The position numbers and the translations under genes are program-made. From the NCBI RefSeq assembly GCF_003334315.1, contig NZ_QOWR01000002.1: 64,000 nt of DNA. One strand, given 5' to 3'. Shown here in pieces: positions 10,812 through 11,699 of this stretch. The notes below the pieces were generated by a model that saw nothing but the letters and a program-made list of their open reading frames with translations, searched no databases and was not told where the DNA came from. Position 1 is the first letter of the stretch. Every line of letters begins with the position of its first letter. Origin of the DNA: Escherichia coli (GTDB lineage Bacteria > Pseudomonadota > Gammaproteobacteria > Enterobacterales > Enterobacteriaceae).

Positions 10812-11699
10812 TCAGGAGAGATATTTATCGAACCATTTCAGTGTCCTTTGCCAGGAAAGATCGGCGGCAGATTTGTCATAACGGGGCGTGGAATCATTAT
10901 GGAATCCGTGATTAACCCCCGGATAGATATACGCCTCATAAACCTTATTATTGGCTTTCAACGCCGCCTCGTAAGCAGGCCAGCCCTCGTTGATTCGGGT
11001 GTCCAGTTCCGCGAAGTGGAGTAGTAAAGGCGCTTCAATCTTCGCCACATCGGCAGTGGGTGCCTGACGACCATAAAACGGCACCGCGCAGGCCAGTTCC
11101 GGATACGCGACAGCCGCCGCGTTCGATACGCCACCGCCATAGCAAAATCCGGTAATACCCACTTTGCCTGTCGCTTGCGGATAGCGTTGCATAAACTCAA
11201 TTGCGGCAAAGAAATCATTCATCAGTTTGGTTGGATCAACCTGCTGTTGCAGCTCACGACCTTTATCATCATTTCCCGGATAACCTCCAACGGAACTTAA
11301 GCCGTCAGGTGCCAGGGCGATATACCCCGCCTTCGCCACTCGCCGTGCCACATCTTCGATATACGGATTCAGTCCACGATTCTCATGCACCACCACCACG
11401 GCTGGCGTTTTGCCGCTCATTTTTGCGGGTTTCACCAGATAACCCCGTACCTCGCCGTGACCATTTGGCGAAGGATACGTGATGTACTCAGCAACAATCT
11501 CCAGGTCGGTAAACTCTACCTGAGTCGCCAGCGCATAATTTGGCTTGAGCAAATCAAACAACGCTAATGCCGTCATCCCGCCCACCGCATACTTCGCCGC
11601 AAGATTGAGGAACTCACGTTTCGAGATTTTCCCGTGAGCGTAATAGTCGTAGTAATCCAACAACTCTTGTGGGAAATCTTTGGCGGTTAAACGCGGCAT
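10812..11699 (-). CDS. yghX: Dienelactone hydrolase family protein YghX (apparently intact)
   Basis: 295-aa product from MPRLTAKDFPQELLDYYDYYAHG; GGAG Shine-Dalgarno upstream of ATG at 11699; uninterrupted frame. Confidence 0.75.
   Translation of the reverse strand: MPRLTAKDFPQELLDYYDYYAHGKISKREFLNLAAKYAVGGMTALALFDLLKPNYALATQVEFTDLEIVAEYITYPSPNGHGEVRGYLVKPAKMSGKTPAVVVVHENRGLNPYIEDVARRVAKAGYIALAPDGLSSVGGYPGNDDKGRELQQQVDPTKLMNDFFAAIEFMQRYPQATGKVGITGFCYGGGVSNAAAVAYPELACAVPFYGRQAPTADVAKIEAPLLLHFAELDTRINEGWPAYEAALKANNKVYEAYIYPGVNHGFHNDSTPRYDKSAADLSWQRTLKWFDKYLS

Follow-up and report, generated by a model that had tools for sequence, protein, structure and literature searches.

An intact yghX gene in a wild-type, non-K-12 Escherichia coli and its derived, frameshifted counterpart in strain K-12

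We conclude, with a probability of about 0.9, that positions 10812-11699 on the minus strand of the analysed 64,000-nucleotide stretch of Escherichia coli DNA (the window) constitute an intact yghX gene on the chromosome of a wild-type strain that is not K-12, and that the two deletions in the K-12 copy are derived. An intact yghX is itself already known biology: the gene is annotated in RefSeq, it has its own NCBIfam model and a crystal structure exists. As a discovery it is ordinary and carries little weight. The features of the window gene are collected in Table 1.

Table 1. Features of the window yghX gene, with window coordinates.
Feature	Position	Strand	Remarks and basis
yghX CDS	10812..11699	(-)	295 codons plus TGA stop (10812-10814); ORF list, sequence, translation
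Shine-Dalgarno GAGGAG	11707..11712	(-)	7 nt before ATG 11697-11699; read from sequence
Leader, residues 1-58	11526..11699	(-)	'YqhI-like' match, Tat-like motif, P53-N-Y-A-L-A58
Tat-like motif S26-K-R-E-F-L31	11607..11624	(-)	followed by a moderately hydrophobic stretch, then P53-N-Y-A-L-A58
'TA' of codon 37 (TAT)	11590..11591	(-)	present in window, deleted in K-12 (2-bp gap, first frameshift); MG1655 alignment
C of codon 157 (ACC)	11230	(-)	present in window, deleted in K-12 (1-bp gap, second frameshift); MG1655 alignment
Codon 66, CTG (Leu)	11502..11504	(-)	Pro in K-12, O157 and 79/80 relatives
Codon 282, TCC (Ser)	10854..10856	(-)	Ala in K-12, O157 and 80/80 relatives
Alpha/beta-hydrolase (dienelactone hydrolase family) catalytic domain, residues 59-295	10815..11525	(-)	Pfam, 4ZV9, AlphaFold2
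Glu106 codon (H-E-N-R-G)	11382..11384	(-)	counterpart of ClcD Glu36; alignment to 4u2c
Cys186 codon, predicted nucleophile in G-F-C-Y-G	11142..11144	(-)	aligns with ClcD residue 123
Asp233 codon, predicted triad acid	11001..11003	(-)	aligns with ClcD Asp171
His264 codon, predicted triad base	10908..10910	(-)	aligns with ClcD His202

The ATG at 11697-11699 opens a single frame encoding 295 aa (MPRLTAKDFP...WFDKYLS), as an earlier, sequence-only reading had claimed without giving the strand, and translation showed that no internal stop had been overlooked. The length of the frame far exceeds chance expectation, the probability of 295 open codons being (61/64)^295, or about 7e-7. A homologue scan covering one genome per species returned more than 586 relatives, the best 80 of which were analysed. 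At these 80 loci an ATG stands at the equivalent start in 77 cases, a Shine-Dalgarno-like motif lies within 20 nt upstream in 74, and an in-frame stop occurs within 20 codons upstream of the start in 45. The start at 11699 is the conserved one, and the good ribosome-binding site and start codon of the earlier reading hold up. The longest ORF from the most upstream ATG (10812..11738, minus strand) would encode 308 aa, and the frame is indeed open from 11738. Translation from that codon is nevertheless very improbable: no Shine-Dalgarno sequence precedes it, GAGGAG standing before 11699 instead, the 13-residue extension is missing in the relatives, and PGAP calls the 295-aa form. We dismiss the longer form on the 80-locus comparison of starts.

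The same 888-bp CDS is called by PGAP in strain JX21CE33 (RefSeq), whose region is 100% identical to the window; it is named "YghX family hydrolase" (WP_001424373.1), an accession shared with BL21(DE3). The gene lies at its usual locus between yghW and gpr, and the order hybO (9099-10217, minus), yghW (10406-10693, minus), yghX, gpr (11856-12896, plus) and yqhA is that of MG1655. The name 'yghX' has also been used for an antisense gene overlapping modA; that is another locus, and the usage looks like a naming slip.

In MG1655 (NC_000913), the annotation marks yghX (b4658; 3146856..3147691) as a pseudogene, and yqhI (b4755) is annotated over its 5' end as a separate 47-aa CDS (3147597..3147740). 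The locus is orthologous to that of the window, with 98.3% identical DNA. A pairwise alignment of 1151 bp revealed 17 substitutions and two deletions on the K-12 side, one of 2 bp in codon 37 and one of 1 bp in codon 157, so that the frameshifted K-12 pseudogene mentioned in the sequence-only reading contains two frameshifts and not one. Because of these deletions, residues 38-157 of the K-12 gene can be read only in frame +1, with the remainder back in frame 0, and frame 0 from the native start ends after 47 aa, giving the product MPRLTAKDFPQELLDYYDYYAHGKISKREFLNLAAKCGRRDDGISVV. Both deletion sites are intact in the window, which thus does not carry the K-12-type pseudogene allele. When the three missing bases are restored, the K-12 protein differs from that of the window at just two residues, P66 and A282, and the inactivation of K-12 yghX is therefore recent.

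The 47-aa frame-0 product of K-12 is, letter for letter, the epitope-tagged small protein YqhI (PMC6001520). YqhI therefore consists of the N-terminal 36 residues of YghX followed by 11 out-of-frame residues. Epitope tagging and ribosome profiling have both shown that it is translated in K-12 (PMC6001520; PMC11429745). Mg2+ starvation induces this translation without the involvement of PhoQP, and the phenotype of a yqhI deletion was not complemented by YqhI (PMC11429745). A pseudogene origin is not mentioned in these small-protein papers (PMC6001520; PMC11429745). Since the start is translated and Mg2+-induced in K-12, the promoter and ribosome-binding site are live. A scan of the minus strand of the yghX-gpr spacer for the sigma-70 consensus gave no promoter match.

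The frequency of the K-12 lesions was determined by searching 5426 complete E. coli genomes with 40-mers centred on the two deletion junctions; any 28-mer seed from such a 40-mer necessarily spans the junction. The 2-bp junction was present in 1251 genomes and the 1-bp junction in 1198, including isolates from humans, pigs, dogs, chickens, water and sediment. The lesions are thus not specific to K-12, and many of their carriers are wild isolates. These counts also bear on the idea that an error of sequencing or assembly, in either sequence, accounts for the difference between the window and K-12. Single-base indels are common assembly errors, and strain 23CRST051, with a lone 1-bp deletion at window position 10858, may be such a case. 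Yet the exact K-12 junctions recur in these many independent complete assemblies, and several independent genomes match the window at 100% identity; we consider an artefact refuted by the population counts, its probability being close to nil.

About three quarters of the complete genomes are without the K-12 lesions. In a sample of 39 evenly spaced full-length matches, yghX was disrupted in 13: ten were of K-12-like length, and the others had the 2-bp deletion only, a lone 1-bp deletion or an IS1 insertion. The gene is annotated as intact in JX21CE33, UTME-7 and strain 100248 from this sample, as well as in the ST131 strain MB1159 and in strain 07_3986. The share of E. coli with an open yghX is thus roughly two thirds to three quarters. 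In strain AVS0283 the 2-bp deletion is the only lesion of the gene, which suggests that it preceded the 1-bp deletion. Strain EH08-18-36 carries an IS1 insertion in a yghX haplotype otherwise identical to that of the window. Repeated inactivation, by K-12-type frameshifts, by IS1 and by another 1-bp deletion, means that yghX is dispensable at least in some niches.

An intact yghX is only weakly diagnostic of the strain, because about three quarters of the complete genomes lack the K-12 lesions; it excludes K-12 and tells little more. The non-K-12 background proposed in the sequence-only reading is confirmed by other features of the window. Comparison with MG1655 shows 163 differing positions over 20 kb. 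The IS2 element that interrupts K-12 yqiG is absent, yqiG being a single ORF (49975..52488), in agreement with the earlier observation. The first 25 kb are 100% identical to strains PI12 (pig), JX21CE35 (chicken) and PSS-13 (human). BL21(DE3) encodes the same YghX protein under the same accession at the same locus (yghW-yghX-gpr), yet the flanking DNA is 99.28% identical (118 mismatches in 16.4 kb), which rules out that the window is BL21(DE3).

Comparison with relatives makes it clear that the open frame is ancestral and that purifying selection acts on it. In all 80 analysed relatives, which belong to other genera and classes, the frame runs uninterrupted for 294-305 codons, with more than 300 aa at a single locus (L077), and this is why we regard the intact frame as ancestral. 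These best 80 of more than 586 relatives are 74-97% identical to the window protein over the full 295 residues and come from genera including Citrobacter, Enterobacter, Klebsiella, Yersinia, Erwinia, Pseudomonas, Rhizobium, Paracoccus, Thalassospira and Rhodoferax; full-length identity is 74-93% in Citrobacter, Klebsiella, Yersinia, Pseudomonas, Rhizobium, Paracoccus and Rhodoferax. Between genera, dN/dS is 0.02-0.04. Of the four intact E. coli alleles compared with that of the window, the three more divergent ones, ST131 included, give values of about 0.05-0.07; the closest, from strain 07_3986, is separated from it by only 2 synonymous and 3 non-synonymous changes (ratio 0.46).

The sequence-only reading had taken the window gene to be the ancestral functional allele. 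The frame is ancestral, as stated, whereas P66L and A282S make the allele itself not strictly so, and function is inferred. These two substitutions are the only differences between the window protein and the intact allele of UTME-7. The L66 haplotype was found in 292 of the 5426 genomes, including BL21(DE3), and the S282 haplotype likewise in 292, including REL606. It could be argued that yghX in this lineage is open and yet functionally impaired or under relaxed selection, a gene on its way to becoming a pseudogene: both substitutions fall at positions conserved across the relatives, the window haplotype carries the IS1 insertion in EH08-18-36, and other lineages have inactivated the gene independently. 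We think this unlikely. All four catalytic residues are intact, and the haplotype is widespread, extending over the 292 genomes with E. coli B strains among them. Substitutions at sites that are otherwise invariant are also seen in other intact E. coli alleles (P53S and A118T in ST131; P76S in strain 100248), with dN/dS inside the species still at about 0.05-0.07. P66L and A282S are therefore a caveat and not a sign of decay.

The window protein is a member of the YghX family: it matches NCBIfam NF041440 ('YghX family hydrolase') from end to end (residues 3-294 on profile positions 1-292 of 292) with 582.3 bits, above the curated cut-off of 460 bits. The Pfam dienelactone hydrolase model PF01738 covers residues 84-294 with its full length (1-217; E 7.7e-48). 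The dienelactone hydrolase of the sequence-only reading is thus upheld as an assignment at the family level. The AlphaFold2 model of the window protein (pLDDT 87, pTM 0.85) superimposes on the crystal structure 4ZV9 with a TM-score of 0.97 (rmsd 1.3 A) and on dienelactone hydrolase (1DIN/4U2B) with TM-scores of 0.80-0.84, and has the alpha/beta-hydrolase fold. Structure 4ZV9 is YghX of O157:H7 Sakai ('EcoDLH', 2.0 A, 'uncharacterized protein'; PMC8533429), which is 98% identical over residues 59-294 and has the same fold and triad. It has P66 and A282 instead of the L and S of the window and differs further at positions 59, 69 and 135; the crystallized construct is without residues 1-58. The next closest solved structure, a putative dienelactone hydrolase of Klebsiella pneumoniae (3F67; 28% identity, E 2e-23; nucleophile motif G-F-C-W-G-G), belongs to another subfamily, below the similarity level of NF041440.

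Catalytic residues were mapped by alignment to a variant of the dienelactone hydrolase ClcD (4u2c). The search for the triad proposed in the earlier reading found a Cys-His-Asp triad with a G-x-C-x-G nucleophile elbow, as in the dienelactone hydrolase family, and C186, D233, H264 and E106 are invariant in 81 sequences. YghX is probably a working Cys-His-Asp hydrolase of this family, judged by homology. Cys186 would act as the nucleophile, His264 as the base and Asp233 as the acid, with Glu106 placed as in ClcD, and the enzyme would cleave an ester, lactone or thioester via an acyl-cysteine intermediate. ClcD of Pseudomonas knackmussii (1DIN, EC 3.1.1.45) shares the alpha/beta-hydrolase fold and Cys123/Asp171/His202 with Glu36, but is only about 25% identical to YghX and has no N-terminal leader. 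Whereas ClcD is encoded within a chlorocatechol operon, yghX is without catabolic neighbours. A strict carboxymethylenebutenolidase (EC 3.1.1.45) would hydrolyse dienelactone and be encoded in a (chloro)catechol degradation cluster, and the 80 loci have no conserved neighbour of any kind. The name carboxymethylenebutenolidase should therefore not be used. The only activity assayed on the purified O157 enzyme EcoDLH is a promiscuous one, that of a phosphotriesterase, which was not detected; the crystal shows a modified or oxidised active-site cysteine (bioRxiv 10.1101/2025.10.30.685675).

Clustering of ORFs across the 80 loci gave no conserved gene partner beyond clade-specific synteny (gpr at 18 loci, yqhA at 15 and yghW at 13). 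The gene stands alone, without a conserved operon partner, and genomic context therefore yields no clue to function.

The catalytic domain is preceded by a leader of 58 residues. Its first 36 match Pfam PF23678 ('YqhI-like', E 8e-20), and a database search with the N-terminal 65 aa returned only fragments of 41-114 aa, all of them PF23678. The consensus reads M-x-RLTAKDFPxELLELYDYYAHGKI-[STN]-[KR]-R-E-F-L-..., continues with a stretch rich in A, G, L and T, and closes with SPNYALA followed directly by xQVEFTDP. Among the 81 sequences, R28, F30, P53, A56 and A58 are invariant. From Escherichia to Paracoccus, the leader is conserved as strongly as the enzyme itself: the mean fraction of the top residue is 0.83 and 0.76 in the leader versus 0.87 in the catalytic domain, and dN/dS over residues 1-58 is 0.023. 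Conservation is lowest in its central part, residues 37-58, where most of the hydrophobic region lies.

Residues 1-58 may well be a Tat-type export leader that is cut after A56-L-A58, judging by the sequence motifs; the mature enzyme, T59-S295, would then work in the periplasm after removal of the leader. The Tat consensus is S/T-R-R-x-F-L-K, against which the window has S-K-R-E-F-L, with K-R in place of R-R. K-R variants of Tat signals exist. Position 27 is K in 61 of the 81 sequences, including the window, and R in 20; the canonical twin arginine (R27) occurs in Pseudomonas, Thalassospira and Rhodoferax. A hydrophobic uncharged stretch and an A-x-A site, as in Tat signals, are both present, with P53, A56 and A58 invariant; peak Kyte-Doolittle hydropathy over 15 residues is 1.4-2.0, and the uncharged runs span 12-28 residues. 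Profile models of Tat signals did not recognize the leader: Pfam TAT_signal (PF10518) had no match at E <= 0.1 in 43 family members, and TIGR01409 scored solely in the Rhodoferax homologue and below its cut-off (14.1 bits vs 16.7). What argues for a Tat leader is therefore the anatomy of the motif.

A tentative alternative is that residues 1-58 are not an export signal and that YghX works in the cytoplasm, with the leader ('YqhI-like') as a helical module of structural or regulatory function. The conservation of the leader, equal to that of the catalytic domain, speaks for such a module, and a signal peptide would not usually show so much conservation in the 25 residues that precede the motif. 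AlphaFold2 predicts three helices in the leader (pLDDT 73-89), fairly confidently for residues 11-50. The missing profile matches point the same way, as does the greater frequency of K-R than R-R among family members, and in E. coli the hydrophobic stretch includes K36 and D49, which leave just 12 uncharged residues. The K-12 stump YqhI, moreover, behaves as a soluble protein (PMC11429745). Against this, the succession of [STN]-[KR]-R-x-F-L, a stretch rich in A, G, L and T, and P-x-Y-A-x-A is built like a Tat signal that includes a signal-peptidase site, and the Pseudomonas and Rhodoferax members combine the canonical R-R with 25-28 uncharged residues. At residues 51-60 the confidence of the model drops to about 60, as would suit a linker or a region of cleavage, and the crystallographers removed exactly residues 1-58, the 4ZV9 construct beginning at residue 59, directly after A58. 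A more speculative proposal, which we hold to be rather unlikely, is that the leader acts as a chaperone-binding or auto-inhibitory pro-region that would control export or activity of a periplasmic cysteine hydrolase, and that YqhI, rather than being inert, might retain part of this activity.

These results bear on the use of yghX in strain engineering, where it routinely serves as a "neutral pseudogene" integration site. This description holds for K-12 (W3110; PMC7677707). The gene of BL21(DE3) has also been termed a pseudogene (PMC12617950); contrary to that label, it is intact. The K-12 lesions are a lineage marker common to more than 1000 genomes and not a laboratory artefact. YqhI, which has been studied as a stress-induced small protein in K-12, is the translated stump of yghX, and yghX is a widely conserved gene of which the reference strain K-12 has a pseudogene copy.

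In K-12, the frameshifted yghX is still translated at its N-terminal end, and the resulting stump is the 47-aa 'small protein' YqhI (b4755), which consists of 36 native YghX residues followed by 11 out-of-frame residues. The Pfam 'YqhI-like' family PF23678 is equivalent to the first 36 residues of full-length YghX in each of the 43 family members examined. Neither of the two YqhI papers (PMC6001520, PMC11429745) refers to this origin.

Across genera, yghX is repeatedly overlapped on the opposite strand by long ORFs; the one at 11201-11482 (+) in the window has counterparts at homologous positions in 48 of the 80 yghX loci of relatives, as determined by ORF clustering. 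Most likely, these ORFs are a by-product of the sense strand's composition and strong conservation, and not a second gene. The spacer between yghX and its neighbour yghW contains a perfect 11-nt inverted repeat, ending 13 nt short of the yghW start codon, of which the K-12 copy differs in the loop, where position 10720 is a G. Because the repeat is AT-rich and the transcribed strand carries no T-run, it looks more like a putative operator or mRNA hairpin for yghW than like a terminator.

Elsewhere in the window, the sequence-only reading had described yqiG as IS-free, which is borne out: the 837-codon ORF is unbroken, whereas MG1655 yqiG is split by a 1.33-kb IS2 that is absent from the window (junction near 50046-50054). 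The Rfam matches, namely SIB, FMN riboswitch, ES173 and naRNA4, are all expected in this chromosomal region.

Coordinates of yghX-associated and other features (window positions unless stated otherwise)
Feature	Position	Strand	Remarks
yqhI / native YghX N-terminal part	MG1655 3147597-3147740; window 11592-11699	- (window)	
Inverted repeat TCGCTATATAT-TGTT-ATATATAGCGA	10706-10731		yghX-yghW spacer
Intact yghX of BL21(DE3)	NC_012892 3014284-3015171; BL21(DE3) locus L088 11285-12172		
yqiG (fimbrial usher)	49975-52488	+	single 837-codon ORF
SIB RNAs (sibD, sibE)	57372-57521, 57747-57896	-	Rfam, above gathering score
FMN riboswitch	48529-48677	-	upstream of ribB; Rfam, above gathering score
ES173 sRNA	20480-20543	+	Rfam, above gathering score
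naRNA4 (REP-derived) elements	3580-3656; 14629-14699 (-)		Rfam, above gathering score

The state of yghX differs among E. coli strains. The YghX protein of BL21(DE3) is identical to that encoded in the window; despite the intact gene, the yghX of this strain has been taken as a 'pseudogene' integration locus in at least one metabolic-engineering paper (PMC12617950). An independent inactivation is found in strain EH08-18-36, where an IS1 splits yghX approximately 125 nt 5' of the stop codon (around window position 10938), the remainder of the region being 100% identical to the window. Strain AVS0283 has the 2-bp deletion without the 1-bp one, suggesting in which order these two K-12 lesions arose. 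Among 5426 complete E. coli genomes, the deletion at 11590-11591 was found in 1251 and that at 11230 in 1198. Neither of the K-12 frameshifts is laboratory-specific, and their carriers include many wild isolates.
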